From an uncultured virus (IMG/VR IMGVR_UViG_3300030294_000020) (lineage: Duplodnaviria; Heunggongvirae; Uroviricota; Caudoviricetes), in IMG/VR virus record IMGVR_UViG_3300030294_000020: DNA of 21,541 nt; one strand, given 5' to 3'. Shown here piece after piece: positions 1-19,713 of this stretch; the first letter of the stretch is position 1, and every line of letters starts with the position of its first letter. The notes under the pieces are model-generated. The model was not told the origin of the DNA and searched no databases. It saw only the letters and a list, made by a program, of their open reading frames with translations. Position numbers and translations under genes: made by a program.

Positions 1-1
1 T

Positions 2-169
2 TTAACTTATTGCATACTCCACTAATGATCTAACATAATTATCGGTACTAATATTTCCAAGTTCATGCAATTTGTTCAAACATGCTATTGCATTATTTGT
101 CTCTTCTTCTGTAATTGGATTTTCTTTTTTACCGTTAATCCATATTTCATAGTGTTCATTGTCATTCAT
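2..169 (-). CDS. Hypothetical 55-aa cassette protein, paralog of 447..692 (not in ORF track)
   Basis: Hand translation: MNDNEHYEIWINGKKENPITEEETNNAIACLNKLHELGNISTDNYVRSLVEYAIS*. SD GAAAGAGG and the promoter motif at 185-211 lie upstream. Confidence 0.8.
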   Translation of the reverse strand: MNDNEHYEIWINGKKENPITEEETNNAIACLNKLHELGNISTDNYVRSLVEYAIS

Positions 170-184
170 TATAATTAACCCTCT

Positions 185-211
185 TTCATTATAGGAGGTG
201 TTTTTAGTGCG
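185..211 (-). promoter_or_regulatory. Representative copy of the repeated 27-bp promoter-like motif (19 copies in 185-5611)
   Basis: Minus strand reads CGCAC-TAAAAACA-CCTCC-TATAAT-GAA. Every copy keeps the same spacing and lies directly upstream of an SD/ATG (or the ncRNA unit). There is no conserved TTGACA. Confidence 0.8.
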
Positions 212-227
212 TACTTAGAATCTTAGA

Positions 228-258
228 AGACAAAGAAAAAGCCTAAGCTAATTCCTCT
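228..258 (-). terminator. Representative copy of the repeated intrinsic terminator (class A, 16 copies)
   Basis: RNA: purine-rich arm-AGC[UUAG]GCUUUUUCUUUGUCU, a short stem with a 4-nt loop then a U-rich tail, at the 3' end of each ORF. Compensatory changes are seen in the copies at about 972-1000, 3727-3746 and 3970-4000. Confidence 0.75.
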
Positions 259-383
259 GATTGTGATGCCTTTATCAAATAATCTTGTTCTTCGTTAAAG
301 CATGATAATGAACAATGATTCAGTTCTGTATTTTCTGATTCAAATTCTTTACCACACCAAGTACAAATATTTTTATATTTCAT
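243..383 (-). CDS. 46-aa putative zinc-binding (CxxC-x13-CxxxC) protein (not in ORF track)
   Basis: MKYKNICTWCGKEFESENTELNHCSLSCFNEEQDYLIKASQSEELA*. SD AAGGAG; the stop TAG sits in the terminator loop. Confidence 0.8.
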   Translation of the reverse strand: MKYKNICTWCGKEFESENTELNHCSLSCFNEEQDYLIKASQSEELA

Positions 384-446
384 AATAATCTCCTTCTTTC
401 ATTATAGGGAGTGTTTTAAATACGAGACAAAGAAAAAGCCTAAGCT

Positions 447-692
447 TTAACTTTTTAAGTCTTCAATTGTTAATTTAAATCCTGAATCATTAAGTATTTT
501 ACATAATAATTGTGTATAGTTTTCTTTAGTAACCTCTCCTATTGCATATAGTTCTTTTAAACATTCTACTGAATTTGCATTTCTTGCAATTACATTAGCA
601 TTATTTAAATGTCTATCTATCTCAATAAGTGACCTTGCTCCTTTAATCCATAACTCATCATGTAAACCATTAGTTAATTTTTCATCGTACAT
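447..692 (-). CDS. Hypothetical 81-aa cassette protein
   Basis: ORF track; SD AAGGAG; flanked by the promoter motif and terminator; similar to 2..169. Confidence 0.85.
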   Translation of the reverse strand: MYDEKLTNGLHDELWIKGARSLIEIDRHLNNANVIARNANSVECLKELYAIGEVTKENYTQLLCKILNDSGFKLTIEDLKS

Positions 693-757
693 AATAATCT
701 CCTTCTTTCATTATAGGAGATGTTTTCTACGCGATTAAGACAAAGAAAAAGCCTAAG

Positions 758-898
758 CTAATTCCATAAAGTTCCATTTATTTTTTGCATCATTAATTCT
801 GATTGTTGTTCCTTTGTAAGTTTATTCCATAATCTATCACGATTTCTTGCGTGTAGTATTTTTCTATAACTTTTCATTGTATTTATCAATTTTCTCAT
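758..898 (-). CDS. Hypothetical basic 46-aa cassette protein (start revised to MRKLIN)
   Basis: SD AGGAGTG lies just upstream of ATG 898. The track start at 958 is upstream of the promoter motif. Confidence 0.75.
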   Translation of the reverse strand: MRKLINTMKSYRKILHARNRDRLWNKLTKEQQSELMMQKINGTLWN

Positions 899-998
899 AA
901 TAATCACTCCTAATAATTTTATTTCATTAAAGAGTGTGTTTTCTACGCGTACTACCATTTTGAATCGTTTAGGACAAAAAGAAAGCCTAAGCTCTCTT

Positions 999-1256
999 CT
1001 ATAGTAATGTTCTAAATCCTTCGTAATTCATCTCTTCAAATTTATGCTTTTCTTTAAAGTAATCAAACCTCTCACCCGTTCCTTTACAACATAAGACATA
1101 TATCGGTTGTATCTTAAATCCATCTGAACTTTTGATTATATCTGACTCTCTCAAATCATATATCTCAAAGCCTTCTTTCTTAAGTAAATCTTTAATACTT
1201 ACTGCTGCTTCTTCTGTATGGTTAGTTATAACCCTAAATTTCATTTTTTCAAACAT
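999..1256 (-). CDS. Hypothetical 85-aa cassette protein
   Basis: ORF track; SD AGGAGG; cassette context. Confidence 0.85.
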   Translation of the reverse strand: MFEKMKFRVITNHTEEAAVSIKDLLKKEGFEIYDLRESDIIKSSDGFKIQPIYVLCCKGTGERFDYFKEKHKFEEMNYEGFRTLL

Positions 1257-1343
1257 ATTAATTCCTCCTATAATAAAACATTATTTTCATTATAGTATGT
1301 GTTTTTAATGCGTACTTAGAATTTTATAAGACAAAGAAAAAGC

Positions 1344-1601
1344 CTAAGCTTCTTCCTCTTTAATAATTTCAGATTTCTTATTGTTCTTTAAAAATGCCTT
1401 TGCAGACGTTTCTAACTCTAGTTTTCCACTACGAGCAATCTCGACAATGATATCAATTTCATTTTCATCTAAGTCTAATGATTTTAACCATTCGTTAAAT
1501 TCACTATACCCAAACCTCCAATTAATTTTACCATTCATTCTTACCCAACTCATAATATATCTAGATGCATGTGTACCTCTAATAATTACATTTTCAAACA
1601 T
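1344..1601 (-). CDS. Hypothetical 85-aa cassette protein ending ...EEEA
   Basis: ORF track; SD AGGAGGT; stop in terminator loop. Confidence 0.85.
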   Translation of the reverse strand: MFENVIIRGTHASRYIMSWVRMNGKINWRFGYSEFNEWLKSLDLDENEIDIIVEIARSGKLELETSAKAFLKNNKKSEIIKEEEA

Positions 1602-1682
1602 AATAATACCTCCTAATTTTTTATTTCATTATAAGGTATGTTTTATACGCGTACTTAGAAGCTTATAAGACAAAGAAAAAGC

Positions 1683-2015
1683 CTAAGCCCTTTCTATAAT
1701 TGTAAATCCTTCATCTAAGGCATCTTGTTTTGAATAACCGTCTGCTAAAGCATCTGAATAGATAGCACAATACGTATCATCCGCAAATACTGGTAATCCA
1801 TTGTTGTACATTAAATTCTCGTTATTACATTTTTGCTTCCACTCCTTAGCCCATTCTGGTAGAACTTCAATGTTTGTTACATCATGAATTTCTACTTTTT
1901 CTGGCTTTAAAATGCTAGCAATAATTATACCTCCGACAATCAAACCACCTGCAATAATTTCCAATCTACGTTTTACGTAAAATTCTTTTATTTTCTGCTT
2001 TGTTTCAATTTTCAT
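1683..2015 (-). CDS. 110-aa protein with N-terminal membrane anchor
   Basis: Basic N-terminus then hydrophobic IIAGGLIVGGIIIASIL; SD AAGGA; cassette context. Confidence 0.85.
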   Translation of the reverse strand: MKIETKQKIKEFYVKRRLEIIAGGLIVGGIIIASILKPEKVEIHDVTNIEVLPEWAKEWKQKCNNENLMYNNGLPVFADDTYCAIYSDALADGYSKQDALDEGFTIIERA

Positions 2016-2101
2016 AATAATTTCCTTCTTTCAAATTTATTCTTCTATTATATAGTATGTTATTTATGCGTACTTAGAATCTTTTAAGACAAAGAAAAAG
2101 C

Positions 2102-2272
2102 CTAAGCTCTTTTCTTTTTATAATTATCTATAACTTTTTGTAGTTTATTACTAAATTTAACACATCCTTTTCTACCGCTAATTACATATATCATTGATAA
2201 TACAATACTTGTTAGTACGTATCCAATGTTGTATGTAATTTTATCGATTAGATTAGAAACATTATTATTCAT
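2102..2272 (-). CDS. 56-aa single-TM membrane protein (not in ORF track)
   Basis: MNNNVSNLIDKITYNIGYVLTSIVLSMIYVISGRKGCVKFSNKLQKVIDNYKKKRA*. SD AGGAGG; stop in terminator loop. Confidence 0.8.
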   Translation of the reverse strand: MNNNVSNLIDKITYNIGYVLTSIVLSMIYVISGRKGCVKFSNKLQKVIDNYKKKRA

Positions 2273-2362
2273 AATAATTCCTCCTAAAATTTTATTTAAT
2301 TCTTCTATTATATGAAGTGTTTTTAACGCGTACTTAGAATTTTAGAAGACAAAAGAAAAAGC

Positions 2363-2692
2363 CTAAGCTTCCTCTATGCCATTCAATTTTCGTATAGTAT
2401 CAAATTCCATTCCACTATCTTTCATCTCTTGCATATAAGATTCTGTGCATAATTCTTTCCATAAAATATCTCCATTTTCTGGATCTATAAAATGCATTTC
2501 AAGGCCTTTTTCCGAATCAAAATCAGTTCCTGGATTTGAAATCATTCCAGTAGCATCTTTATCAATACTTTGTTTATTAGCAATAATTGTTGTTATAACA
2601 ACCACCGTTAATATTCCCGTACTGGCAATAATAATACTTTTCTTCTCTTTCATCCATTTTTTAATTTTATCGGTCTTATCTTTAATACTCAT
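2363..2692 (-). CDS. 109-aa protein with N-terminal membrane anchor
   Basis: Basic N-terminus then IIIASTGILTVVVITTIIA; acidic C-terminal part ending IEEA; leader identical to that of 1683..2015. Confidence 0.85.
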   Translation of the reverse strand: MSIKDKTDKIKKWMKEKKSIIIASTGILTVVVITTIIANKQSIDKDATGMISNPGTDFDSEKGLEMHFIDPENGDILWKELCTESYMQEMKDSGMEFDTIRKLNGIEEA

Positions 2693-2802
2693 TTATATTC
2701 CTTCTTTCAAATTTATTCTTCTATTATATAGTATGTTATTTATGCGATTTATAGAACAAAAGAAAAAGCCTAAGCTCTTTCCTTAATAATTTGTTAAAGT
2801 TA

Positions 2803-3021
2803 TTAGCCTAATAAATGTTTAATACTTGACTCATTGATTTGCATAATCTCACCAATTTCAGCATTTGACAATCCTTTTCCCTTTAGCTCTTTTGCTTTCT
2901 TATAAAGTTCCTTCCTCAAATCTTCTTTATCTTTAGCATTTTTAGCTCTTAATTCTAGTACTGTCATACCTACTCTTTTAGCGATTTCTTTCTCACTTAC
3001 GTCACTCTTAAACCTAATCAT
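2803..3021 (-). CDS. 72-aa helix-turn-helix DNA-binding protein (two HTH-like segments)
   Basis: SEKEIAKRVGMTVLELR and GLSNAEIGEIMQINESSIKHLL both fit HTH patterns; SD GAAAGAGG. Confidence 0.75.
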   Translation of the reverse strand: MIRFKSDVSEKEIAKRVGMTVLELRAKNAKDKEDLRKELYKKAKELKGKGLSNAEIGEIMQINESSIKHLLG

Positions 3022-3094
3022 TAATAAAACCCTCTTTCAAATTTATTTCATTAAAGGGTGTGTTTTATGTGCGAATAAAAGACAAAGAAAAAGC

Positions 3095-3406
3095 CTAAGC
3101 TTTATCCTCTTTAATTTTCTTGGATTTATTTTTTATAATTATATGCCTTAAATAACTCCCAATACAAACAAGTCCTAATGTTATACCACTAACTAATAAT
3201 ATTTCCTTTCGTGCTTCAACTGCTCCTGCATTAACAAAATAACTAAGTCTATAATCAAGATTTTTATTCAAATCTTCCCTATTGTCGTCTGTTACATTAT
3301 CACTGCATAACATGTCTAAAGCATCAAATAATAAATATGTTCGTTCGTGTTTTCCATCAATTTCTTCCTGCCTAATATTTTTTATTACTCTATCTGCTGT
3401 ATTCAT
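3095..3406 (-). CDS. 103-aa protein with C-terminal TM segment
   Basis: ILLVSGITLGLVCIGSYL followed by a basic tail; SD AAGGAGG; stop in terminator loop. Confidence 0.85.
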   Translation of the reverse strand: MNTADRVIKNIRQEEIDGKHERTYLLFDALDMLCSDNVTDDNREDLNKNLDYRLSYFVNAGAVEARKEILLVSGITLGLVCIGSYLRHIIIKNKSKKIKEDKA

Positions 3407-3504
3407 AATAATTCCTCCTTAAAATTTATTTCATTAAAGGGTGTGTTTTTTATGCGTACTACCATTTTGAATCTTTTGAGACAAAAGAAAAAGCCTAAGC
3501 TTCT

Positions 3505-3681
3505 TCATTCAAAGTCGTCATCCATTATTATAATATCCTCAATAGCCTCATCATTAGAATGCAAATCAAGTTCGTCTAAAAATCTTTGAACAATCATAAG
3601 TTCATCGTCCGTAAAATTTTCAGTAGGCCAACTAAATCCTTCTCTATTATATCTTGCTGTTACATAAAATATTTTCTTCAT
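3505..3681 (-). CDS. 58-aa highly acidic protein (start revised to MKKIFY)
   Basis: SD GAAGGAG upstream of ATG 3681; 16 of 58 residues are D/E. The track start at 3762 crosses a terminator and the promoter motif. Confidence 0.8.
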   Translation of the reverse strand: MKKIFYVTARYNREGFSWPTENFTDDELMIVQRFLDELDLHSNDEAIEDIIIMDDDFE

Positions 3682-3758
3682 AATTAACATCTCCTTCATT
3701 ATAGAGGGTGTTATATACGCGACAAAAAGAAAGCCTAGGCTTTCTTCTATAAAGTTTC

Positions 3759-3914
3759 TCAATTTTGTTGGACTTCTTTAATTCTTTTAACTAAACTTGT
3801 GAATCCTAGCATTGGCACTTTAGATAATATTATTGCTCCTTCAATTACGATAGGTGCAACGGATATTACTATAGCTACTCCCACTAAGTTGTTCAACAAT
3901 GATTTAATTTTCAT
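3759..3914 (-). CDS. 51-aa hydrophobic/membrane peptide (not in ORF track)
   Basis: MKIKSLLNNLVGVAIVISVAPIVIEGAIILSKVPMLGFTSLVKRIKEVQQN*. SD AAGGAG; cassette context. Confidence 0.75.
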   Translation of the reverse strand: MKIKSLLNNLVGVAIVISVAPIVIEGAIILSKVPMLGFTSLVKRIKEVQQN

Positions 3915-3991
3915 AATTAACATCTCCTTAAAATTTTAATTCTTTCATTATAGGGGATGTTTTATATGCGACAAAAGAAAGAGCCTAAGCT

Positions 3992-4252
3992 CTATCCTTT
4001 AAAAGTGTTTGATATTTTGTCAATCTCAATTGAACTATCATTAGATTTAACAGATAACATTGCCATCCCTCTTTTGTAGTATTGTATATTACCCCAACAT
4101 ATAAGTTTATCTAAGAGTTTATAAACGCCTTTTTTATATTTAATTCGTTCATGTGCTCTTTTTAACCTTTCTGCATGTGCAATATACATATCTGCTTTTT
4201 TAAGTTTGTCAATGGTATCTTGCTTTAAATCTGTATGTTGTTCATCCTTCAT
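3992..4252 (-). CDS. Hypothetical basic 86-aa cassette protein (start revised to MKDEQH)
   Basis: SD AAGGGGTG upstream of ATG 4252. The track start overlaps the promoter motif. Confidence 0.75.
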   Translation of the reverse strand: MKDEQHTDLKQDTIDKLKKADMYIAHAERLKRAHERIKYKKGVYKLLDKLICWGNIQYYKRGMAMLSVKSNDSSIEIDKISNTFKG

Positions 4253-4299
4253 TTCCCCAATCACCCCTTTCAATATATACTGTGTTTATTACGCGATAT

Positions 4300-4338
4300 G
4301 GAGAAAAAGAAAAGGACATGTATTTAAACACGTCCTTT
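4300..4338 (-). terminator. Intrinsic terminator, class B
   Basis: AAAGGACGUGU-loop-ACAUGUCCUUUUCUUUUUCUCC; the stop of 4324..4626 is in the loop. The tail matches those at about 5504 and 5614. Confidence 0.8.
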
Positions 4339-4626
4339 GATGATGAAGCCCAATGCTTTAGAACCAAGTACATGTGCATGTTCAAATCCCACTATCAATA
4401 AAATTCCAGCTAAACTACCTGCAATCTGCCATTTTGTATCAGCACTAGCTTTAGTTGTATCCTTTTCTTTGGATTTCCCCTCTTTTAGTTCTGTTATATT
4501 TTGGTTTATGCCATCGTATTTTGCCTTTTCTTCTATTGGATCTAGTGTCGATAATATTTCATGCAACCTCTCAATTTCCTTATCTGCAAGACTTCTTTTA
4601 TCTTTTGGTATCCATATTTTTTTCAT
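4324..4626 (-). CDS. 100-aa phage membrane protein (C-terminal hydrophobic segment)
   Basis: WQIAGSLAGILLIVGFEHAHVLGSKALGFII; SD AAAGGAG. Confidence 0.85.
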   Translation of the reverse strand: MKKIWIPKDKRSLADKEIERLHEILSTLDPIEEKAKYDGINQNITELKEGKSKEKDTTKASADTKWQIAGSLAGILLIVGFEHAHVLGSKALGFIIKGRV

Positions 4627-4697
4627 TATCCTTTTCTCCTTTCGAGATTTATCATCTCATTATACAGTGTGTTTCTAACGCGAGATAAAGAAAAAGC

Positions 4698-4875
4698 CTA
4701 AGCTTCCTCTAACATAATACTATCAATAACAGTTTGTATTGCATCTATTAACCCACCTACTTGTGAATCTTTTAACTCAAATAATTCAGGTATCTCTTCT
4801 TCGGTATCTACTAACAGTAGTTTAACTGCTAATTTTTCCATTTAATTTTTCACATATCCTTGAATTTAATTTCAT
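4698..4875 (-). pseudogene. Frameshifted paralog of 5240..5449
   Basis: The SD-led ATG 4875 gives MKLNSRICEKL then a premature stop. Homology continues in another frame from 4841: MEKLAVKLLLVDTEEEIPELFELKDSQVGGLIDAIQTVIDSIMLEEA*. Confidence 0.7.
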
Positions 4876-4957
4876 AATAAAACCTCCTCATAATATTCTT
4901 TCATTATAGAATATGTTTCTAACGCGAATTAGAATTTAAGAAGACAAAAGAAAAAGC

Positions 4958-5167
4958 CTAAGCTTCTTCTATTTTAATTTCTTTTAAAGCATTCATTATT
5001 TTTTGAATCTCTTGTTCATTTACCTCTTTTTCTATATAAGCCTGTCCTAACTTAGTAGATAAATCCTCAATCTGGTTTTTATAACATACGATTGTATGAT
5101 CTGTATCCTTAAGTTTATGACATTCATTATATAAGTCAATTGTTAATCTGAATATTTCTTCATTCAT
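4958..5167 (-). CDS. 69-aa coiled-coil cassette protein (start revised to MNEEIF)
   Basis: SD AAGGAGTG; heptad-like pattern; ends IEEA in terminator. Confidence 0.8.
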   Translation of the reverse strand: MNEEIFRLTIDLYNECHKLKDTDHTIVCYKNQIEDLSTKLGQAYIEKEVNEQEIQKIMNALKEIKIEEA

Positions 5168-5239
5168 AATAATCACTCCTTAAATTTCTTTCATTATATA
5201 GAGTGTTTTGTACGCGTACTAAGAAGTCAAAGAAAAAGC

Positions 5240-5449
5240 CTAAGCTTCTTCTATTCCAACATTACTCCGAATTTCTTTTATTATATCAGCTAGTTCATCT
5301 ATTTGTTTGTCTGACATATTTTGTATACCTGGTATATTAGTAACCTCATAATCCTCAACAGTTAATACTTCAACTGCTAATTTCTCTAGATCATTTTTTA
5401 CCGGATATTTTTTTAATGCTTCTTTGCATTCTTTCGATTCTAATTTCAT
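5240..5449 (-). CDS. 69-aa acidic cassette protein (start revised to MKLESK)
   Basis: SD AAGGAGG upstream of ATG 5449; ends IEEA in terminator. Confidence 0.85.
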   Translation of the reverse strand: MKLESKECKEALKKYPVKNDLEKLAVEVLTVEDYEVTNIPGIQNMSDKQIDELADIIKEIRSNVGIEEA

Positions 5450-5502
5450 AATAAAATCCTCCTTATAATATTCTTTCATTATATAGAATGTTTTTTACGC
5501 GA

Positions 5503-5587
5503 AGGAGAAAAAAGAAACAGTATGTTAATGTCTTTCGACGGATCTGGTTTAGCTTTCACTAATCCTAGCATCCCACTGTTTACTTCT
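5503..5587 (-). ncRNA. Candidate ~80-nt structured small RNA (three-way junction, two GAAA tetraloops)
   Basis: Sits between a promoter motif and a U-tract with no SD-led ORF. Pairings by eye: AGAAG.AAACAGUG/UACUGUUUCUUUU, GGAU..CU..GG..UUAGU[GAAA]GCUAA..CC.AG.AUCC, and GUC[GAAA]GAC. Confidence 0.6.
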
Positions 5588-5611
5588 ATTAAGGGGTATG
5601 TTTTCTACGCG

Positions 5612-5654
5612 AAGGAGAAAAAGAAAGGACATGCTTATCTTTCATCCTTTCTTT
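5612..5654 (-). terminator. Class B hairpin terminator downstream of the lysis module / empty cassette
   Basis: AAAGAAAGGAUG-loop-UGUCCUUUCUUUUUCUCC, a 12-bp stem plus U-tract, about 60 nt after the holin stop. Confidence 0.7.
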
Positions 5655-5712
5655 ATTATAAGAAGTATTTATACGAAACCTTTTAAGATCACCTATCCCT
5701 TCTTTATTCTTA

Positions 5713-6042
5713 TTATTTTAAATTAGCACCATTTTGAATATTTAGAGTAAGAGTTGTTTTATCACTTAAATCACTTAAATCCGTATCAAGTACTAATTTG
5801 TAAATGTCCTTCTTAGGATCACTTGTGTCTATTAAGAACGAACCATCTTTAGTCTTGTTATACTGTGCTGATGAGATTCCTAAGATTATTCCTAGAAATA
5901 TATCTATAGCAGTAATAGTTCCGACAATTTGTTCTCCGTAGGGTAATCCCCATATGCCAGATAAGGCAAAGTATAGAGTACCCATTGCTGGAAAGAAGTA
6001 TTGAGCCATCCATTTGAGCATATCATATAATTTACTTTTCAT
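5713..6042 (-). CDS. Holin, Dp-1-like family, with C-terminal soluble extension (start revised to MKSKLY)
   Basis: LYDMLKWMAQYFFPAMGTLYFALSGIWGLPYGEQIVGTITAIDIFLGIILGISS is a recognisable two-TM Dp-1-type holin pattern; downstream of the endolysin. Confidence 0.8.
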   Translation of the reverse strand: MKSKLYDMLKWMAQYFFPAMGTLYFALSGIWGLPYGEQIVGTITAIDIFLGIILGISSAQYNKTKDGSFLIDTSDPKKDIYKLVLDTDLSDLSDKTTLTLNIQNGANLK

Positions 6043-6043
6043 G

Positions 6044-6496
6044 TTAAACACCCGTACCAGATCCACCAACTCGTGTATTTTGTTCTTTGATTATTTCAGC
6101 TACAGATGATGCTAATTGTTCAGGTGTTACCTTCGCTCCGGCTATATTATTTTCTGATACTAATGTTTGAGCTTTAATTGCTTCGGCCTTAGCTTGTTCT
6201 TTTGCAAAGTCTTTGAGTCTATCAAATATAAATTGTATATGATTTGATATGTCTTTTTCACTAATAAATATTTTAAAAACTCCAGGCATTAAACCATATG
6301 ATATATCTAAGACCTTTTGAAACTTACTATCATTGTTTATTTCTAAGGCTTGCATTGAGGCTATAAGTCCGGGTATATTAGTGTATACCTCTTGCTTATT
6401 CTTGCTGTATAAAGCCCTAAATACGGCTGTTAAAGCCACTATAATGGCTAATAAAAGCCCATAATTATCTGATATAAATTGGTATACATTATTCAT
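6044..6496 (-). CDS. Second holin-like membrane protein (LL-H-like architecture)
   Basis: Single N-terminal TM (GLLLAIIVALTAVFRALY) plus a helical cytoplasmic domain; strong SD AGGAGG; follows the endolysin. Confidence 0.6.
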   Translation of the reverse strand: MNNVYQFISDNYGLLLAIIVALTAVFRALYSKNKQEVYTNIPGLIASMQALEINNDSKFQKVLDISYGLMPGVFKIFISEKDISNHIQFIFDRLKDFAKEQAKAEAIKAQTLVSENNIAGAKVTPEQLASSVAEIIKEQNTRVGGSGTGV

Positions 6497-6534
6497 TTAT
6501 ACATTCCTCCTAATATTCTTTATTTTATTCACTT

Positions 6535-6635
6535 AAACGCATCTGTATAAAAATATCCAGTCTATTCTATAGTATCATAGGCAATTGCTTTGTCTAAGAA
6601 TAGTTGCTGGATCATTTTTTTATATAAGAGCATTT
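6535..6635. other. Long imperfect intergenic inverted repeat (~100-nt stem-loop)
   Basis: Nested arms aaacgc/gcattt, tataaaaa/tttttata, atccag/ctggat and ctattct/agaatag. Confidence 0.7.
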
Positions 6636-6651
6636 ATACCTACATATTTGA

Positions 6652-7554
6652 CTATCTTAATAAAGCAGTCCAAGTATCTGGGCCTACTACTCCATCATCA
6701 TCAAGTCCTACTGCTCTTTGGAATGCTTTAACTGCAGCAAGTGTCTTTGGCCCAAATATTCCTATTTGATCTGAAAGAGCCATTGCTAAACGTCTTTGCA
6801 ACCATAAAGTTATATTACTATTTGATCCAACCCTTAATACTGGGCAAGCTTTAAGTGTTAATGGGCCAAAGAAACCATCTATTTTCAAGGTAGTTTTAGC
6901 TACATAATTAAGAGTTCCTTGTAATGATGCTATTGATTGATTTACTCTTGTTGCTGGTGCAGTAACTACTACAGGTCTTGGCAATGGTGTATTAACCTTA
7001 CCAATAGATGACCCAACAATTCCTTCTGCTATTGCTTTTCCTACAGCTTCATGTCCTACACTTCTATATATTCGAATATCTTCTGTTGCTTCACAAAAGC
7101 ATACTTCTACTAATACTGCTGTTGCAACAGATGCTTTAATATCATGTAGATGTTGTACATTTATACCATCTTTTAACCCACGATTCTTAAAACCTAATGC
7201 TGCTAAATTATTAAGTATTCTTGTTCCTATTTCAACTGCCTTAGGATTATTTGGGTTAAGCCAAATTTCACTACCTATTGCTCCTGCATAAGAATCATAT
7301 GCCTTATTAAAATGTATAGGCACTGATAAATCCACATGAGCATTATTAGCAGTGTTTGTCCCATAATTAAGATCCTCATTTTCACTACAATTACCAGGCG
7401 TAGAATCAATAGTCTCTACACCAGCTCTTTGTAGATAGTTTATTGCCCAAGGATATACTAATCGATCTTCCTTTGTTTCATCAAGTCCACCAACATTAGT
7501 GGCACTAGCTCCTGGGCATTGTGGATTGTGTCCGCCTCTTACTGCTGCTTTCAT
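6652..7554 (-). CDS. Endolysin: N-acetylmuramoyl-L-alanine amidase (Amidase_3) with C-terminal PG_binding_1-type repeats
   Basis: Zn-amidase motifs GGHN, E..EDR, IHFN and LVEVCF; Pro-rich linker; DGFFGPLT, GIFGPKT..AVKAFQ and DGVVGPDTW. Confidence 0.92.
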   Translation of the reverse strand: MKAAVRGGHNPQCPGASATNVGGLDETKEDRLVYPWAINYLQRAGVETIDSTPGNCSENEDLNYGTNTANNAHVDLSVPIHFNKAYDSYAGAIGSEIWLNPNNPKAVEIGTRILNNLAALGFKNRGLKDGINVQHLHDIKASVATAVLVEVCFCEATEDIRIYRSVGHEAVGKAIAEGIVGSSIGKVNTPLPRPVVVTAPATRVNQSIASLQGTLNYVAKTTLKIDGFFGPLTLKACPVLRVGSNSNITLWLQRRLAMALSDQIGIFGPKTLAAVKAFQRAVGLDDDGVVGPDTWTALLR

Positions 7555-7576
7555 TTTACATTCCTCCTAAAATTTA

Positions 7577-8086
7577 TTATTTACTCCAGTATTTAACAAA
7601 CATTCCTGTACCATAGTTAAGTACCATTAAAAATATTGAAATCCAAAGACCTATTAGAAGACGTCTTTTCCACTTTTTAGCTTCTTTATCATCAGCCTCT
7701 TTTATTAATTTATCACGTTTATCTTCATCTTCTTTTTTTTCTTTTAGTCTCTTATCTTCAATAACCTTGGCTTCTTTTTTGATATCAGCAATTCTCTTTT
7801 CTTCGATTTTTTCATTTTTCATACCATCGAAGTTTGTTTTTATCATACTTTCCATCTTTTGAGTTGAAGCAGCAAGTGTAATCTTATACTCTTTATCTGC
7901 TTCGGATTGAGAAGCTTGGGTATCTTGAATACGCTCAACCATATATTTTAAACCAATATTTCCTTCTTTAATTTCCCCAACTATCCTAGCTATATCTTTA
8001 GTTGCATTTTCTCCCTTATCAATATCTGCTTGCATCTTTCTAATTGTCTCGGCCATTATACATTTATCTTCTTCATTGCCACTCAT
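7577..8086 (-). CDS. 169-aa coiled-coil protein with C-terminal TM, probable lysis accessory (XhlA-like architecture; start revised to MSGNEE)
   Basis: Charged coiled coil then LLIGLWISIFLMVLNYGTGMFV; SD GGGAGA; directly upstream of the endolysin. Confidence 0.65.
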   Translation of the reverse strand: MSGNEEDKCIMAETIRKMQADIDKGENATKDIARIVGEIKEGNIGLKYMVERIQDTQASQSEADKEYKITLAASTQKMESMIKTNFDGMKNEKIEEKRIADIKKEAKVIEDKRLKEKKEDEDKRDKLIKEADDKEAKKWKRRLLIGLWISIFLMVLNYGTGMFVKYWSK

Positions 8087-8114
8087 ATCATCATCTCCCA
8101 AGTTGTATGATTTT

Positions 8115-8149
8115 GTCTATAGGAATATGTTTCTGCCTATCCTATAGAC
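8115..8149. promoter_or_regulatory. Perfect 10-bp inverted repeat in the leader of the lysis genes
   Basis: gtctatagga-N15-tcctatagac; no U-tract on the coding strand. Confidence 0.55.
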
Positions 8150-8210
8150 CTTAATTATGTCACTACCAAGAGTTTAAAGTTTTATGCCTAACATATGATG
8201 ATGCTTTTTC

Positions 8211-8231: not shown

Positions 8232-8272
8232 ATATACCACATCCTTCTTATATATTAGTGATATCTATTGAA

Positions 8273-8518
8273 TTATACATATATAACAAATCCAAGTTCT
8301 ATTGCCCTATCTTTTACTGCTGCTTGGAATGCTTCGTACTGGGTCTTTACTGTTACAGCATTAGATTGAAGCAATGTCATATTACTTACAGTCATTGAAA
8401 CATTTACATTTTGACTAGTTGTATCTAAATTTGCATTTAAAAATGCTACCTGAACATCGACCCCATTTTCAGCTTTTCCAGTTACTATAGCAGTTATGTT
8501 TGTTGTTATGTTTATCAT
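8273..8518 (-). CDS. Hypothetical 81-aa protein (post-tail-fibre)
   Basis: ORF track; SD AAGGAATGGTG. Confidence 0.8.
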   Translation of the reverse strand: MINITTNITAIVTGKAENGVDVQVAFLNANLDTTSQNVNVSMTVSNMTLLQSNAVTVKTQYEAFQAAVKDRAIELGFVIYV

Positions 8519-8558
8519 TATTAATCACCATTCCTTTTTTATTATTATTTATTATTTA

Positions 8559-8939
8559 TTACTCTTCAATCATATAGTCTATGATTATAAATTCAGAAGG
8601 AGTCATTGTATATCCATCTAAATTTTCTAGTTTGAAAGTATGGATATTAACATCGTTTTCTATTTCTAATAACTCTTTAAAGTCTTTATTCCATCCAGCA
8701 AGATCTTCACCAATAAATGATACAGTACCATTATCATTAATGATTAACTTACCATCATTATCCTTTAAACCATATTTCTCTACTAATTTTTGTCGTTCTT
8801 CATTATAAATCTTCAACTCATTATCAATTTTAGCAATATTTTTTGCTATTGCATATGATACTTTTATTGGAAGTTCCTTTGCTGATATTTGCTTTAATAT
8901 TTCAGAATCATTTACCATTTTTAAATTATTTATTTTCAT
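8559..8939 (-). CDS. 126-aa phage protein typical downstream of tail fibres (DUF1617-like; start revised to MKINNL)
   Basis: SD AAGGGG upstream of ATG 8939; the LPIKVSYAIAKN...ERQKLVEKY pattern is recalled from memory. Confidence 0.7.
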   Translation of the reverse strand: MKINNLKMVNDSEILKQISAKELPIKVSYAIAKNIAKIDNELKIYNEERQKLVEKYGLKDNDGKLIINDNGTVSFIGEDLAGWNKDFKELLEIENDVNIHTFKLENLDGYTMTPSEFIIIDYMIEE

Positions 8940-8967
8940 TATTAATATCCCCTTTTTTATTTTATTT

Positions 8968-11900
8968 TTAATATTGTTTCCATGTACCCCATACACCATT
9001 AACTTTTTTCCTTGTGAAGAATATATTTTCAGTATATGAGTCTAATCTTTGTGAGCACCATCCACTAGCATCATGACCTTGAACAAATAAATAAAACCAA
9101 GCATTAGCCCATCCAGCTGGAGCATTTACTAAATTACAACCTCTGAACATCCCTGCAGCAACATAATCGTTTAAATTTGCACCACTTATATCTTTACCAA
9201 CTGCTCCTAGATACATACCATTAATAAAAGTAGCTGTTAAATTCCCAGTAATACTTAAATTTCCAGCTCTTGTATCCATAACGATTCTACAAATATTATC
9301 ATAACTTGTAAACCCAATTCCATACCAAGAGTTAATAGCCATATTATATGCAGTAAAAGTTGCATTATCACCATTTCCACTTAATATCCCACAATAACTA
9401 TAATCACCACCAATTTTAATTCCACCAGAAGCAACTATTGTTCTTGGAACTACAAGAACTCCCTCATTATTTATAGTCAAAGATGGGTCATTTATATTTG
9501 CTGTTCTACCCGCATGAAACATTAATTGCTTTTGCGAATAAATTATTGTTCCAGTATGATTAGAATCGGTAGTACCTGATGATTCATAGTAGTAACCCAT
9601 TGGACTTGAATCTCCATTAAACATATGTCTAACCATAAAACATCGATATGCTATTTCATTCTCTACACCATATCCATATCTATCACCACCAGAATGTAAA
9701 GTTAGATCAAGACCAGAAGGATATATATAAACAATATCAGCTATTCTAGATCCTTGTACAGCACTCTCTGGTATATAGAAATTACCGTACAAACCACCAT
9801 CTAAGGTTAATGTACTATCAGTACTTCCTCCTTGTCCATACCATTGTCCTGTTGAACTCTGTATTTGAATTTTACCTATCATGATAGCTAATCCATCTTT
9901 AGTTATACTTCCAATAATATTGCCATTAGCATCATTCATAGTTAATGCACCGCTTATATTATCAGCACCACCTAGTACAAGTGTTCCACCTTTAATGTTT
10001 CCACCATTGATAGTAACACTTCCTGCAACGCCAATGGCTGTTATGGTAACATAACCATTTAATGTTAGTTTATCAGCTTTTAAGTCTATATCTTGGGCTG
10101 TCTGTGCAATATAAGAATTATATGTCGTAGATGATACTTTACCATTAACTGTAGTATTCGTAGCATATGTAGATGAAACGGTGCTTAGTATGCCACTAGC
10201 ACTAATAGAGATTGCAGAGTTCATTGCAGTTGTTGTTGAATAATTATTTGTTATATTAGTTGTAACAGCACTTACTGCATTTGTTATATTAGTAGCTGTT
10301 ACTGTACTAGTTGAATAATTAGTTGTTAGATTCGATGCTACAGCAGTTGCCGCATCTAATGCAGTCTTAGCATCAGTCACACCTTTATTTGCTTGTGCTT
10401 GTGCCGTAGCTGCATCTGTAACACCCTTAGTAGCTTGAGTCTGAGCTGTTGCTGCATCTGTAACACCCTTAGTAGCTTGAGTCTGAGCTGTTGCTGCGTT
10501 ACTTGTAGCTGTATTAGCCTGAATCTGAGCTGTAGATGCATTAGCAACTCCTAAGTTAGCCTGAATCTGAGCGTTTGCAGCGTTAGTCGTAGCTGTATTA
10601 GCTTTAGTCTGAGCTGTTGCTGCGTCGCTAGTAGCTGTATTAGCCTGAGTCTGAGCTGTTGCGGCGTTATTTAAAGCTGTTGTAGCATTGGTAACTCCTA
10701 ATTCAGCTCTTTCCTTAGCTGTAGAGGCAATTAAATTAAGTAAGTCAGTTCTAGCATTGTAATAAGTAGTCCATTTTGAATCCCATGTAGATCTAACAAT
10801 ATCTGAAGTAATTGTAGTCATAGAAGAAAATACGGTTAGTGTGGTATTCAAATAAGTATTCAAATCATTATATGCTGTGTCAAATATATTATGATCGACA
10901 CCAAATGCAATTGCTTGTGCTGGTATTTTACCAGTTGTTACTGTAGCTTCTGATACTATAAGTGTCCATTGTTGCTTTAAATCAAGTTTCTCATCTGGAG
11001 TTATAACTGAATCCAGAGCCAAATTATCAGTATATGTTTTGGCAATATTAGCTGTTGTTTGGGCTTGTGCTGCTGCAGAAGATGCTATGTCAGCATTAGT
11101 AACTCCTAAGTTAGCTTGGGTCTGAGCAGTCGCTGCGTCTAGTATAGCTTGTGCTGCATTAGTTTGTGCTGTTGCTGCGTCCAACACTCCTTGATCTGCC
11201 TTAGCTTGTGCTGTAGCTGCGTTAGTAACACCTAAGTTGGCTTGGGTCTGAGCTGTTGCTGCATTAGAGATTGCGGCATTAGCTTGGGTCTGAGCTGTTG
11301 CTGCATTAGAGATTGCTGTTGCTGCATTAGAGATTGCTGTTGCTGCATTAGCAACTCCTAAATCAGCTTGAGTCTGAGCTGCACTAGCATCAGATAAACT
11401 TTGATCTGCTTTAGCTTGTGCTGCTGCTGCATCTGATACTCCTTGACTAGCTTTATTATAAGCTGCTGCCACGGCAGTATTCGTTGCATCTAATTGAGTA
11501 GACGTTGCACTTAATTTTATAGCCTGAGTGTTAGCTGCAATATTTGTAGTCTGGGTCCCAACAATAGTGTTTATATCATTTACTAATGTTGTAATTGACC
11601 TAAATTCTACGTCTAATGTGTTAGTGGTCATTTGTATTTTGGAACTATTGATTGTAATAGAACCATTAGCATTTATCATTGATATTACTTTACTTATATC
11701 AATCTTTTTAGGATCTAATGAGGCATCTACAAGTTTACCATAACCATCTGTAAATCCTTCTTTTGTTTGACCTTTTTCATCATATAAGAGTGTAACCCCA
11801 TCATCACCTCTTATTCTTATACCGATAACTGACCCATCAAAATTAACATCACCAATAGATATTCGTTCAAATAATGTTACTCCATCAGCCATTGTATCAA

Positions 11901-13314
11901 ATAATTGTATTCTATTGCCATTTATAAGCAATCGTCCATCTGCACCTGATAACTGTATTTTAGTTGTATCAATTGTCCCGGCATTTAAAGAACTAATATC
12001 CACATCTGATATCTGGGCATGACCAATTATAACACTCCCCATAACTGCTGAGGCTATTGTAGCTACTTGACTTGATAAATTATTAACATTACCATAATCT
12101 ATTGTAGCATTATCAATCACACCTGTTGTAATATGTGCATAATTAGCATCTAAATCTCCAACCTTAACTACTCCTATTATAGCAAATTGTATATCTGCTA
12201 CATCAATTTTTACATTATCTATCTCAGTAGTAAAGAATGTTTCTAGAGCATCAACTTTTTTATTTATTATTTGTCCACCTGATGATATTGTAGTTGCTAA
12301 ATTAGATTTAACATCTCCAAGATCTAGTTTTGTATATTTATCAGTTAATGCATTATACTCAGTTTTTATGCATCTTGCTGTTGCACTGACTCCTAATGCT
12401 GGAAATTCAACTGTAACTGTATCCCATAAATTAACAGTTTCTAGTATAGCTAAGTCTTTAAACTCAGGATCTTGTGATAATTGCGCAAACTCTACTTCAA
12501 TTGATACTTTTGGCACACCAATATTATTGGTCGTAATATATTCAAGCGCTGCGGCTCTTAATGCTTCAACTGCAGGTTTCTCTGACCAATTTGATGATAA
12601 TTCTAATGGCATTATTCTAACAAAGTCATAAGTACCAGGGGTATTTAATAGTTTTTCTTCAAGTTGGACTAATCCATCTTTCTGAGAATACCAATAAGGA
12701 TACACTCCGGTATATACAGAACTACAATTCTCTTCTTGCTTTAGACTAACTAAGTTTTTCCCATAACGAATTGTAACTCCTCTATTAACTCCTCGTTCAT
12801 TAAATAACTTAACATTAAATTTATCAAATTCATATTCTCCGCCATAAGTATCTAGTATAGGACCACCAAGTATAGAACTAATACTCCATGGTACTAGTGT
12901 TTCTATATTTCCCTCTGTTCGTTTATTCGTGGTAAATGAGAAAGGACAAGAAACTGGAGCAGTATTTGCTATCATTACCATTGTATTTTCAATATTTGAG
13001 CATGCAAATGGTGGAACAGGATACCCTGATAAATCGTAACGTACATGCTCAGCGTTTATTGTTACAACACCATCTAAAGGTTTTGATATGCTATATATCC
13101 TAAATGGTTGAGGATCAGAATATGGATTAGGTTTAGCTAATATTATTTTTCTCAATCCTAAATCTGAATAATGAATACCTGTCATTGGATAAACAAGTTC
13201 TAATTCATATATACCATTCCCTTCCTCATTTACAATACAAGATACACTATCAGACAAAGGACCTAAACCATTAGTTTCAAATACCAGTTCTTCAGAATTA
13301 AATAAAGTAATCAT
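8968..13314 (-). CDS. Tal-like tail/baseplate protein fused to a long fibre and C-terminal receptor-binding knob (1448 aa; start revised to MITLFN)
   Basis: N-terminal prophage tail endopeptidase-like region (YELELVYP, QPFRIY, YGGEYEFD, IRYGKNL); Ala/Thr/Gln repeats; C-terminal NLNDY..G.F..NAP..W..W knob-like end. ATGA overlap with the upstream gene's stop. Confidence 0.88.
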   Translation of the reverse strand: MITLFNSEELVFETNGLGPLSDSVSCIVNEEGNGIYELELVYPMTGIHYSDLGLRKIILAKPNPYSDPQPFRIYSISKPLDGVVTINAEHVRYDLSGYPVPPFACSNIENTMVMIANTAPVSCPFSFTTNKRTEGNIETLVPWSISSILGGPILDTYGGEYEFDKFNVKLFNERGVNRGVTIRYGKNLVSLKQEENCSSVYTGVYPYWYSQKDGLVQLEEKLLNTPGTYDFVRIMPLELSSNWSEKPAVEALRAAALEYITTNNIGVPKVSIEVEFAQLSQDPEFKDLAILETVNLWDTVTVEFPALGVSATARCIKTEYNALTDKYTKLDLGDVKSNLATTISSGGQIINKKVDALETFFTTEIDNVKIDVADIQFAIIGVVKVGDLDANYAHITTGVIDNATIDYGNVNNLSSQVATIASAVMGSVIIGHAQISDVDISSLNAGTIDTTKIQLSGADGRLLINGNRIQLFDTMADGVTLFERISIGDVNFDGSVIGIRIRGDDGVTLLYDEKGQTKEGFTDGYGKLVDASLDPKKIDISKVISMINANGSITINSSKIQMTTNTLDVEFRSITTLVNDINTIVGTQTTNIAANTQAIKLSATSTQLDATNTAVAAAYNKASQGVSDAAAAQAKADQSLSDASAAQTQADLGVANAATAISNAATAISNAATAQTQANAAISNAATAQTQANLGVTNAATAQAKADQGVLDAATAQTNAAQAILDAATAQTQANLGVTNADIASSAAAQAQTTANIAKTYTDNLALDSVITPDEKLDLKQQWTLIVSEATVTTGKIPAQAIAFGVDHNIFDTAYNDLNTYLNTTLTVFSSMTTITSDIVRSTWDSKWTTYYNARTDLLNLIASTAKERAELGVTNATTALNNAATAQTQANTATSDAATAQTKANTATTNAANAQIQANLGVANASTAQIQANTATSNAATAQTQATKGVTDAATAQTQATKGVTDAATAQAQANKGVTDAKTALDAATAVASNLTTNYSTSTVTATNITNAVSAVTTNITNNYSTTTAMNSAISISASGILSTVSSTYATNTTVNGKVSSTTYNSYIAQTAQDIDLKADKLTLNGYVTITAIGVAGSVTINGGNIKGGTLVLGGADNISGALTMNDANGNIIGSITKDGLAIMIGKIQIQSSTGQWYGQGGSTDSTLTLDGGLYGNFYIPESAVQGSRIADIVYIYPSGLDLTLHSGGDRYGYGVENEIAYRCFMVRHMFNGDSSPMGYYYESSGTTDSNHTGTIIYSQKQLMFHAGRTANINDPSLTINNEGVLVVPRTIVASGGIKIGGDYSYCGILSGNGDNATFTAYNMAINSWYGIGFTSYDNICRIVMDTRAGNLSITGNLTATFINGMYLGAVGKDISGANLNDYVAAGMFRGCNLVNAPAGWANAWFYLFVQGHDASGWCSQRLDSYTENIFFTRKKVNGVWGTWKQY
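10370..11450 (-). repeat. Intragenic 21/42-nt coding repeats (NAATAQTQA-type) in two blocks
   Basis: Exact 42-nt tandem at 10409-10492 and exact 21-nt tandem at 11294-11351; the two blocks are separated by a non-repetitive helical domain. Confidence 0.9.
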
Positions 13315-14027
13315 AAAGTCCACCACCTTGGCATAATTCTCACAGAGGTTATTCCTCCGGAAAATGATATATCAGTTTCTCCTAACTGTAATTTAGGAAA
13401 TAGTTTATTAGCTACTATTATGTAACTATTTTGATTTAGAGTTCCATCATATGCGTCTTCAATTTCACAATTAATTGTCACTTTATTTGTAATTTGAGAC
13501 ATTGTTATAGTATATGAACCTATTGTTAGTACTCCAGGTCCATCTCCTACTACTGTTATAATTGGCAAGGCTACCTGATCACTTGGGTTTAGTATCTTCC
13601 CTAATGTATAAAAGGTAGTTTCTACTTCTCCACTTTTAAGGAATCTTTGAGGTTTACAATTAAAATTTATTGTAGTTCTTCCTGCATGCCCATATAAATT
13701 TGATAATGAACCACTTTCCATATACATGGCTAACCTATAATAATCTGGTTCATATGAATCTTCTAATCTTAAGTAGCCTGATCCAGAATGTAACCATTTG
13801 GAAATTCTATTAGCCATTACACTATATTCTTCCTCATAAGAACCTATTGCAACTTTATAACTACGAGGAACATTCTTATAAGAACCTGTATCTTGAACTA
13901 TATCCCCGTTTCGTCCAAGAATATGTTGAACATTATAATCTCTTTCTGCTGTCTCATAATCAGGAGGAGTCTCAACCTGAATATGATGAACATCAGATGA
14001 TATATGATTAAATGTAACTATGCCCAT
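13311..14027 (-). CDS. Distal tail protein (Dit)
   Basis: Lies between TMP and Tal; motifs GRNGD, LEDSYEPDYYR, FNCKPQRF, FPKL..G and PRWWTL. Confidence 0.85.
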   Translation of the reverse strand: MGIVTFNHISSDVHHIQVETPPDYETAERDYNVQHILGRNGDIVQDTGSYKNVPRSYKVAIGSYEEEYSVMANRISKWLHSGSGYLRLEDSYEPDYYRLAMYMESGSLSNLYGHAGRTTINFNCKPQRFLKSGEVETTFYTLGKILNPSDQVALPIITVVGDGPGVLTIGSYTITMSQITNKVTINCEIEDAYDGTLNQNSYIIVANKLFPKLQLGETDISFSGGITSVRIMPRWWTL

Positions 14028-19701: not shown

Positions 19702-19713
19702 ATAAAGACCTCC

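Follow-up and report, generated by a model that had tools for sequence, protein, structure and literature searches.

Which RNA polymerase transcribes the small genes at one end of a siphovirus genome fragment in which nearly every gene has a promoter-like repeat of its own? The window analyzed here is a 21,541-nt stretch of an uncultured virus of the Caudoviricetes (IMG/VR record IMGVR_UViG_3300030294_000020). From position 5611 down to the start of the window it carries a 19-unit array, in which every unit opens with a small hairpin whose tail is rich in T. After a linker that differs in length between units comes a conserved motif of 27-31 bases with the pattern CGCRY-N4-AACAY-N4-TWTAAT-GAA, and then a short leader that has a strong Shine-Dalgarno sequence and leads into a small open reading frame (ORF). 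A first-pass annotation had proposed that the motif is a promoter of a geometry that does not suit host sigma-A. Our analysis makes it likely that the 19 copies are promoters of a siphovirus related to Lactococcus phage 1706, read by a predicted single-chain two-barrel RNA polymerase of the phage and not by the host sigma-A holoenzyme.

We searched the whole window for CGCRYNNNNAACAYNNNNTWTAATGAA, allowing up to three mismatches, and found 19 matches between positions 185 and 5611, all on the minus strand; 12 are exact, and three, three and one have one, two and three mismatches, respectively. Shuffled sequence is expected to hold 0.04 copies, and none of 100 shuffles reached 19. No other copy turned up in a profile scan of both strands of the 21.5-kb window, even at a cut-off of 5 bits; beyond the window, the motif was met in relatives. 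Anchored on the hexamer, the 19 copies align without an indel, so the constant spacing reported for them earlier holds, and their consensus is CGC[GA]T-a-n-AAAACA[CT]-n-C-n-n-TATAAT-GAAAGAA. Positions C1, G2, A10, A11, C12, A13, T21, A22 and T24 are invariant (19/19). The hexamer is TATAAT, TTTAAT, CTTAAT and TATATT in 14, three, one and one of the 19 copies, and GAAAGAA lies downstream of it, replaced by AGAAGAA in four units.

As a sigma-70-type -10 element, the TATAAT of those 14 copies is perfect. Firmicute sigma-A promoters normally need a -35 element or a TGn extension as well. We found no conserved -35, in agreement with the first-pass annotation: no column from -69 to 0 in the 19-copy alignment exceeds 0.94 bit. 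The extended -10 (TGn) precedes none of the 19 hexamers, and sigma-70-type sites are not enriched in positions 1-8200 (41 vs 44.5 expected).

The position of the start also bears on the identity of the enzyme, since sigma-A initiates 6-8 nt downstream of the hexamer. In seven phages, tRNA genes lie directly behind motif copies. Counted in nucleotides after the hexamer from Rfam and ARAGORN placements, the gap is 3 nt in relative G006 (L165:10130-10200) and 4 nt in relative G005 (L130:3584-3654) by Rfam, with ARAGORN giving one base less for both; it is 4-6 nt, depending on the method, in G003, 7 nt in G004 (L163:4032-4104) and on the L009 contig, and 8 nt in Rhodococcus phage ReqiPepy6 (L146:1206-1278) and Lactococcus phage P078 (L142:4022-4083). 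The L009 case, at 7 nt, was the only one added by a wider search for motif-abutting tRNAs in 127 first loci. The genes are single tRNA or tRNA-like genes, and ARAGORN gives an odd anticodon loop for two of them. A similar crowding is seen in leaders: of the 129 units with both a Shine-Dalgarno sequence and an ORF, about 17 have a core that starts 2-6 nt past the hexamer, and in none does it start sooner. Four of these units belong to the window: copy 8 (2 nt, ATG at 3681), copies 17 and 18 (6 nt each) and copy 19 (4 nt). The two units quoted in the first-pass annotation, TATAAT-GAAGGAG-9 nt-ATG at 3703-3679 and TATAAT-GAAAGAGG at 193-180, were described correctly. A sigma-A start 6-8 nt past the hexamer would truncate the close tRNAs and leaders, an indirect argument against sigma-A. 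Positions 25 and 26 are purines in all 162 motif copies from 12 genomes (see below), and conservation reaches the fourth base past the hexamer. Judged from this geometry, transcription probably starts at a purine, the first or second base past TATAAT; such a start fits the tRNA gaps, the Shine-Dalgarno gaps and the purine conservation, and lends support to the earlier proposal of a start right after TATAAT. We also considered the ATG within TATAATGAA as a leaderless start codon and rejected it; in the unit at 4900 that frame stops after 10 codons.

The motif is a trait of a phage lineage, not of the window alone. DNA searches of a phage collection with the array, near and distant, gave no match, and the exact pattern was found in 127 stretches of IMG/VR (about 200 estimated), many of them arrays of 4-9 copies per 6 kb and many in contigs of 52-64 kb. 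Five whole contigs have 7/0, 17/0, 10/0, 11/0 and 22/0 copies on the motif strand and the other strand, and a reversed-pattern control gave 0 in them. With a profile that tolerates mismatches at any position, we counted 162 forward copies and one reverse copy in 12 genomes spanning 32-61% G+C. The geometry CGC-N8-ACA-N5-TATAAT-GA is kept in isolates of another phylum (45-61% G+C), with 17 forward and 0 reverse copies in ReqiPepy6, 8 and 0 in Arthrobacter phage Tribby, 4 and 0 in Streptomyces phage Scap1, and 12 and 1 in Gordonia phage Petito. Nearly all promoters of Pepy6, Petito and Scap1 (loci L145, L146, L152 and L155) share the leader GAGACCCCTAYGAAAGGA, followed by the start codon, so that their 5' UTR is standardised from the first base past the hexamer onward. 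The relative G005 (55,088 bp, with terminal repeats) has tail, tape-measure and holin proteins 42-63% identical to those of the window. In or near its motif-driven region (L129:7692-8882, 13662-14129 and 17157-18896) it encodes a reverse transcriptase (RVT_1), a GGDEF-domain protein and a third protein in which WDGH and Tad3 (Thoeris inhibitor) domains are combined.

One gene travels with the motif. An 840-990-aa protein is encoded by 26 of 27 near-complete motif-bearing contigs, and a member of its family is present in all five isolates examined. Besides relative G005, these contigs include 3/3 motif contigs that are at least 90% complete and 22/23 motif-bearing contigs of at least 50 kb, in which the protein is full-length. 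G005 starts with an 840-aa ORF of this kind, which matches phrog_4291 ('RNA-dependent RNA polymerase') with E=0. Among IMG/VR loci that extend 1,500 nt or more upstream of the gene, 41 of 67 have the motif on the same strand; 47 hits are forward and two reverse, and 36 of the 47 lie 1,019-1,101 nt upstream of the gene. Homologues of phrog_4291 occur in 250 phage records, including phages of Arthrobacter, Gordonia, Streptomyces, Rhodococcus, Microbacterium and Curtobacterium, Lactococcus phages P078 and P118, Faecalibacterium phages and gut siphoviruses, and the family comprises at least 1,219 clusters at 50% identity (E<=1e-30). In the late operon this gene comes first, immediately followed by the HNH, terminase and head genes. 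It stands under a motif copy of its own, and the record of ReqiPepy6 and the annotation of ReqiPoco6 carry it as 'structural protein'. This position and annotation make delivery of the enzyme with the virion plausible but unproven. Before the first helix-turn-helix (HTH) the protein has a conserved N-terminal stretch, HYG..R.SGRYPWGSG.NP (e.g. L143:11132, L150:16086); two regular expressions for HYG..R.SGRYPWGSG, run on 12 genomes, returned only the polymerase itself.

Several lines of evidence suggest that this protein is an RNA polymerase with built-in DNA-binding modules. A DFDGD loop is found in 7/7 ORFs and is invariant in a 42-sequence alignment (D459-D463); it has the form of the metal-binding DxDGD loop of the two-barrel RNA polymerase superfamily. 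The G005 protein has sigma-region-4-like HTHs near its N-terminus and an HTH at its C-terminus. Across the 42 members, Pfam Sigma70_r4_2 is detected in 41 and RdRP, below threshold, in 28. An AlphaFold model (pLDDT 82.7, pTM 0.70) has as its best PDB matches in Foldseek QDE-1 (E 1e-10) and P74-26 gp62 and P23-45 gp64 (E 1e-6), followed by plant RDR2, P23-45 gp96, beta-prime/Rpb1 chains and crAss gp66. TM-scores over the whole chain are only about 0.3, so the likeness is confined to the catalytic core and does not extend to the overall architecture. The model thus predicts a two-barrel RNA polymerase fold, similar to QDE-1 and gp64. PDB sequence searches with the single protein and with the 42-sequence profile gave HTH matches only, and a protein atlas yielded one RdRP-bearing cluster, scoring 0.86, under the 0.9 mark.

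We also looked in five relatives for other means of directing transcription. Sigma70 region 2 was found in none of them, with the control positive in 10/14 genomes. T7-like polymerase (PF00940) was found in none of the five, with a silent control, and neither were MotA and AsiA (PF09114, PF09010), for which both controls were silent, so that these negatives carry little weight. The search for a polymerase, sigma factor or activator suggested by the first-pass annotation, made here in relatives, has thus turned up a polymerase-fold protein and no sigma region 2, while for MotA/AsiA it says little. Of the enzymes that annotation had envisaged, the phage-encoded polymerase gains support, as the motif crosses phyla together with one gene for a predicted two-barrel RNA polymerase with HTHs.

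For the phage of the window itself, the connection runs through an overlapping sequence and a small protein. The sequence, G001, is from the same phage, being 100% identical to window positions 8268-21541 (13,274 nt) and extends 9,982 nt past the high end of the window, covering head and terminase genes and no motif copy. Its gene order, HNH, virion protein, TerL (79% identical) and portal, is collinear with that of G005. G001 stops about 300 nt ahead of the HNH gene and thus narrowly misses the position that the polymerase gene occupies in G005. From this synteny and the relatives, we infer that the phage of the window carries the polymerase gene. The array also encodes, as a free-standing 72-aa protein (2803-3021, minus strand), a copy of the double HTH found at the N-terminus of the relatives' polymerase. 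It is 45% identical to G005 L128:97-288, aligns with columns 48-114 of the 893-column polymerase profile (hhalign 98.7%, E 3.6e-16), and matches phrog_4291 (E 7e-11) and Sigma70_r4_2 (E 4e-6). Small paralogues of this kind are also seen in the arrays of G006, G007 and G011. One may speculate that the 72-aa protein competes or regulates at the array promoters.

That the motif is read by this enzyme is an inference, as is the assignment of its parts to the boxes. The built-in HTH modules would bind two duplex boxes, CGCR (positions 1-4) and WACA (positions 10-13); CGC and ACA are separated by 10 bp, or one helical turn, and hence lie on one face of the helix, which suits the tandem N-terminal HTHs. 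TATAAT (positions 19-24) would be the melting element directly upstream of the start, and the first RNA base would be an invariant purine, position 25 or 26 (the G of GAAAGAA). The hairpin with its T-rich tail would insulate each promoter from its upstream neighbor, and the array would thereby amount to independent terminator-promoter-leader-ORF cassettes for small, probably early, genes. Natural variation touches on the assignment of the boxes. In P078, nine promoter copies have TTTA for CGCR and keep the remainder of the motif; the P078 polymerase is the most divergent (39% identity), and the helix of its second HTH is altered. Locus L229 co-varies in the same way, and together these should be counted as effectively a single evolutionary event. 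When boxes and HTHs were compared across 65 polymerase loci, P078 and L229 were the only cases in which a clear pattern emerged.

The hexamer keeps two host-based explanations in play. In one, sigma-A reads TATAAT and a phage protein at the CGC and ACA boxes replaces the -35, as MotA and AsiA do in T4; the 72-aa HTH protein could be this activator, or the large HTH-flanked protein could act as a factor. This would account for the perfect -10 consensus in 14 of 19 hexamers and would put the boxes at about -30 and -20 from a sigma-A start, the positions of class II activators. HTH proteins are indeed encoded within the array, and the polymerase activity of the large protein is a prediction from its model. 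We nevertheless regard this explanation as unlikely: a sigma-A start at its usual distance would fall inside the tRNAs 3-4 nt past the hexamer and would cost about 17 of 129 units their Shine-Dalgarno core, and a mere activator needs neither an invariant DFDGD loop nor a predicted fold like that of QDE-1 and gp64. That MotA and AsiA were not seen in five relatives also speaks against it, weakly given the silent controls. Alternatively, the copies could be ordinary strong sigma-A promoters, with the boxes serving as an operator for a phage repressor or simply hitch-hiking as parts of a duplicated cassette. Besides the TATAAT hexamer, this would draw on the fact that units have been duplicated together with their leaders, for example in Pepy6, Petito and Scap1, so that conservation may partly reflect common descent, and on the three of 19 hexamers that pair with a -35-like word (4 of 6 matches) at 16-18 bp; these weak words derive from the terminator tail TTGTC. 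We judge it very unlikely, as a -35 is not conserved, TGn is found in 0/19 copies, sigma-70-like sites do not exceed expectation, and the tRNA and Shine-Dalgarno gaps argue against it as well. Moreover, the box spacing is exact across phages with unrelated cargo and linkers and with 32-61% G+C. We also considered that the repeats are primarily recombination or packaging-type sites at cassette boundaries and not promoters. Twenty-five of 30 joint endpoints, taken from 15 of 19 contig joints with matched sides mostly under 45 letters, fall in terminator-promoter zones, which cover 21% of the stretch. However, short-read assembly likewise yields joints at repeats, and repeated promoters can give rise to shuffling as a side effect, a situation described for the PeSLs discussed below. 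Given also the strict strand bias (162 vs 1), the fact that the motif is always followed closely by a Shine-Dalgarno core, a tRNA or a structured RNA, and the conserved copy about 1 kb upstream of the polymerase gene, a primary role in recombination or packaging appears extremely improbable.

Other observations weigh against a phage polymerase as the reader of the motif more generally. Every hexamer position is at least 88% conserved in the 162 copies, and A at hexamer position 2, which is critical for sigma-A, is present in 143/162. Because TATAAT is the universal -10 consensus of group-1 sigma factors, its conservation across phyla is equally expected from recognition by the host, and -10-only promoters are common in Actinobacteria. 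The start positions come from sequence geometry, and read-through from preceding units could, in principle, supply the transcripts of tRNAs and genes that lie close to the hexamer. The polymerase gene lies outside the window, and its presence in this phage is deduced from synteny and relatives. The motif contig G007, although 92% complete, has only a short match resembling the N-terminus, and 26 of the 67 polymerase loci lack the motif at a 13-bit threshold, most of them with degenerate copies of the TATAAT-AGAAGG type at the same place. The co-occurrence of motif and gene is phylogenetically non-independent, coming as it does from one phage lineage, and our literature searches found no bench demonstration of polymerase activity for the phrog_4291 family. 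Weighing all of this, we still favor the phage's predicted two-barrel polymerase as the enzyme that reads the 19 copies. A fuller scheme combines several of the suggestions above: a host-factor-free system working across phyla, in which an 840-990-aa polypeptide of core and HTHs reads a 28-31-bp CGCR/WACA/TATAAT promoter and starts at the next purine, and arrives with the virion (hence the place of its gene at the head of the late operon), and in which the 72-aa HTH copy competes for the boxes and shuts off early transcription. We put this joint scheme forward tentatively, and as a whole it is rather doubtful.

The individual copies are as follows, from high to low coordinates on the minus strand, exact unless a number of mismatches is given and with the candidate +1 in each case. 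Copy 1 (5585-5611; three mismatches, CTTAAT at 5588-5593, +1 at 5587) precedes an 86-nt ORF-free stretch, copy 2 (5475-5501; TATAAT at 5478-5483, +1 at 5477) the ORF at 5240-5449, copy 3 (5190-5216; +1 at 5192) the ORF at 4958-5167/5176, and copy 4 (4900-4926; +1 at 4902) a split-looking gene consisting of a short ORF and then 4698-4841. Copy 5 (4656-4682; one mismatch, +1 at 4658) stands before the ORF at 4324-4626 (phrog_5818) and copy 6 (4269-4295; one mismatch, TATATT, +1 at 4271) before the ORF that ends at 3992. They are followed by copy 7 (3944-3970; +1 at 3946), which has no linker to the terminator tail and precedes the ORF at 3759-3923, copy 8 (3695-3721; +1 at 3697), whose ATG was given above, copy 9 (3430-3456; TTTAAT, +1 at 3432), before the ORF at 3095-3406, and copy 10 (3047-3073; TTTAAT, +1 at 3049), before the HTH gene at 2803-3021. 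The next three have two mismatches each and the AGAAGAA variant: copy 11 (2720-2746; TATAAT-AGAAGAA, +1 at 2722; ORF 2363-2692), copy 12 (2304-2330; +1 at 2306; ORF 2102-2272) and copy 13 (2044-2070; +1 at 2046; ORF 1683-2015). Copies 14 (1625-1651; +1 at 1627) and 15 (1286-1312; +1 at 1288) precede the ORFs at 1344-1601 and 999-1256, and copy 16 (923-949; TTTAAT, +1 at 925) the ORF that ends at 758. Nearest the start of the window are copy 17 (707-733; +1 at 709; ORF 447-692), copy 18 (398-424; one mismatch, +1 at 400; ORF 243-383) and copy 19 (185-211; +1 at 187; ORF 2-169).

The hairpins that separate the units are themselves a repeat. The terminator-like element RRRGCYTAGGCTYTYTYT occurs in 16 copies on the minus strand between 234 and 5248, with 0.07 copies expected; the low coordinates are 234, 431, 744, 978, 1335, 1674, 2093, 2354, 2761, 3086, 3486, 3726, 3976, 4689, 4949 and 5231. 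Each has a stem of about 9 pairs, a TTAG or CTAG loop, a T-rich tail and a folding energy of about -10 kcal/mol, and the core shared by the 16 is GCYTAGGC between purine and pyrimidine runs. From the loop to the next motif copy there are 11-36 nt, in line with the linker of 0 to about 24 nt noted on first inspection. A different and stronger terminator hairpin (4311-4338, minus strand; 11 pairs, -14.5 kcal/mol, z -7.3) precedes motif copy 6. A count of terminator-like sites gave 9 against 2.0 expected, and a hairpin with a T tail lies within 70 nt of the motif for 17/19 copies in the window and, family-wide, for 59/162 copies vs 7/162 random positions. The terminator word itself had no match in IMG/VR. 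Nine of the 18 ORFs use the TAG in the hairpin loop as their stop codon, which means that the 3' ends of these genes belong to the repeat. These nine ORFs read through the 5' arm of the hairpin, and their proteins end in ..EEA, ..KRA, ..ERA, ..DKA or ..ELA.

The cargo of the array comprises 18 small ORFs of 46-110 aa (2-5449, minus strand). No PHROG was found at E<=0.001 for 15 of the 18; the outcomes with PHROGs were one HTH module, one phrog_5818 and two marginal matches. The HTH ORF was scanned apart, and the other 17 gave nothing at the Pfam cut-off. Judged by eye, the gene of the unit at 4900 (4698-4876, minus strand) resembles a split paralogue of the ORF at 5240-5449: the N-terminus of a 17-codon ORF is similar (MKL.S..C), and the stretch EKLAV..L recurs in a 47-aa ORF that lies in a different frame. 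In place of an ORF, motif copy 1 is followed by a candidate small non-coding transcript (5502-5587, minus strand; 86 nt). From 5587 to 5502 the sequence folds with a long stem that closes both ends (-22.4 kcal/mol, z -2.3), and a T-rich tail comes next. It belongs to no Rfam family, and we found no copy of it in the fetched loci of relatives. The first-pass annotation had two stems beginning at the first base after the hexamer; the one predicted in this unit starts at the second base, while the 'empty' unit said to hold the other could not be identified.

Across window positions 1-6200 (runs X3, X5, X7 and X9), contigs from other samples with the same habitat label follow the window for one or a few cassettes and then jump or diverge at the repeats, and the loose ends of the diverging contigs again carry motif copies. 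The repeats may thus also mediate cassette exchange, or this may be an effect of assembly. The rest of the window is laid out in the same direction: all genes of its 21.5 kb are on the minus strand and run, from high to low coordinates, from the tail genes to the endolysin, the holin and the array. They include the tape measure gene (14018-19330), the Dit gene (13311-14027), a gene for a tail protein of 1452 aa (8968-13326), the endolysin gene (6652-7554) and the holin gene (5713-6069).

Of the single-chain two-barrel phage polymerases, only those of phage P23-45 have mapped promoter motifs, as far as the available literature goes. The family described here is large and combines a short, sharply defined candidate promoter with built-in DNA-binding modules, so a single protein and an oligonucleotide of 31 bp would suffice to probe its specificity. 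Confirmation would establish a way of recognizing promoters that differs from sigma factors in mechanism and from T7-type enzymes in fold, would explain the insulated cassette arrays of a widespread phage lineage, and could provide a compact orthogonal expression system for Gram-positive hosts.

Among known systems, T7-type promoters are contiguous, indel-free elements of about 23-31 bp that run through +1, with an upstream specificity region, a TATA-like melting segment and a purine start. The motif described here resembles them in being one contiguous element whose melting segment would abut the start; it differs in sequence, and the T7 enzyme, a right-hand polymerase, has an unrelated fold. 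At T4 middle promoters, the host polymerase is redirected by AsiA and by MotA at a box at -30, and a sigma-70 -10 and the normal start distance are retained. With these the motif shares a -10-like hexamer without a -35 and a conserved upstream box, but its predicted start abuts the hexamer and it has two boxes, CGCR and WACA, that, judged by reading, are not the MotA box. In layout the array is closest to the PeSLs of T4-like phages, in which a terminator stem-loop and an early promoter lie between small variable ORFs and cassettes are exchanged, according to the parts of those reports available (Arbiol et al., 2010, PMC2839356; Comeau et al., 2014, PMC4122927). Here, too, a stem-loop terminator directly upstream of a promoter is repeated between small ORFs. 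As differences, exchange is only weakly indicated here, by the contig joints, and PeSL promoters are described in those parts as host sigma-70 early promoters of myoviruses.

The protein has been in print for some time. An HTH-flanked 'putative RNA polymerase' was reported for Lactococcus phage 1706, Faecalibacterium phage FP_oengus and the actinophage supercluster BI/AM/AU/DJ/CC/EL (Koert et al., bioRxiv 10.1101/842583; Ruprich-Robert and Thuriaux, 2010, PMC2919709), and the enzyme discussed here is of the same family (phrog_4291), with the DxDGD loop, HTHs at both ends and the standing of a signature gene of the group. Koert et al. predicted an RNA polymerase, and the word 'promoter' appears 0 times in the available text of the preprint (10.1101/842583); in the portions available, both papers deal with the protein only and mention neither the DNA motif with its geometry nor a link between motif and enzyme. 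The available part of a paper on Microbacterium phages mentions repeats in other clusters and none for cluster EL. Our literature searches, whose scope did not include Summer et al., 2011, on ReqiPepy6, found no published promoter for this polymerase family.

Two better-characterized enzymes of the same superfamily provide the nearest comparisons. YonO of the Bacillus prophage SPbeta is a single-chain two-barrel polymerase with one start at P_YonO, whose promoter sequence is given as undetermined in the available part of its report (Forrest et al., 2017, PMC5467207). The 1706-type protein has been called 'YonO-like', which, in the part of that paper available, is a grouping made in the literature (PMC2919709); YonO has no reported HTH modules and belongs to a different family, without sequence similarity to our 42-sequence profile (hhalign probability 2.8%). 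The siphovirus P23-45 encodes two such polymerases, the non-virion gp64 and the tape-measure-fused virion protein gp96, which use GC-rich and AT-rich promoters with starts mapped by ONT-cappable-seq and ChIP-seq, as described in the available part of the report (Chaban et al., 2024, PMC10770324). The enzyme described here differs from them in having no sequence-level similarity by PDB profile search and in carrying HTH modules at both ends, and its promoter differs in being tripartite, ending in TATAAT, and in having a start placed from sequence. At the same time, the P23-45 and P74-26 structures of gp64 and gp62 (8f72, 8f5m) are among the best matches of its model (E ~1e-6), and, as far as P23-45 is described in that text, both would be cases of a siphovirus single-chain two-barrel polymerase tied to its own motif in front of early genes.

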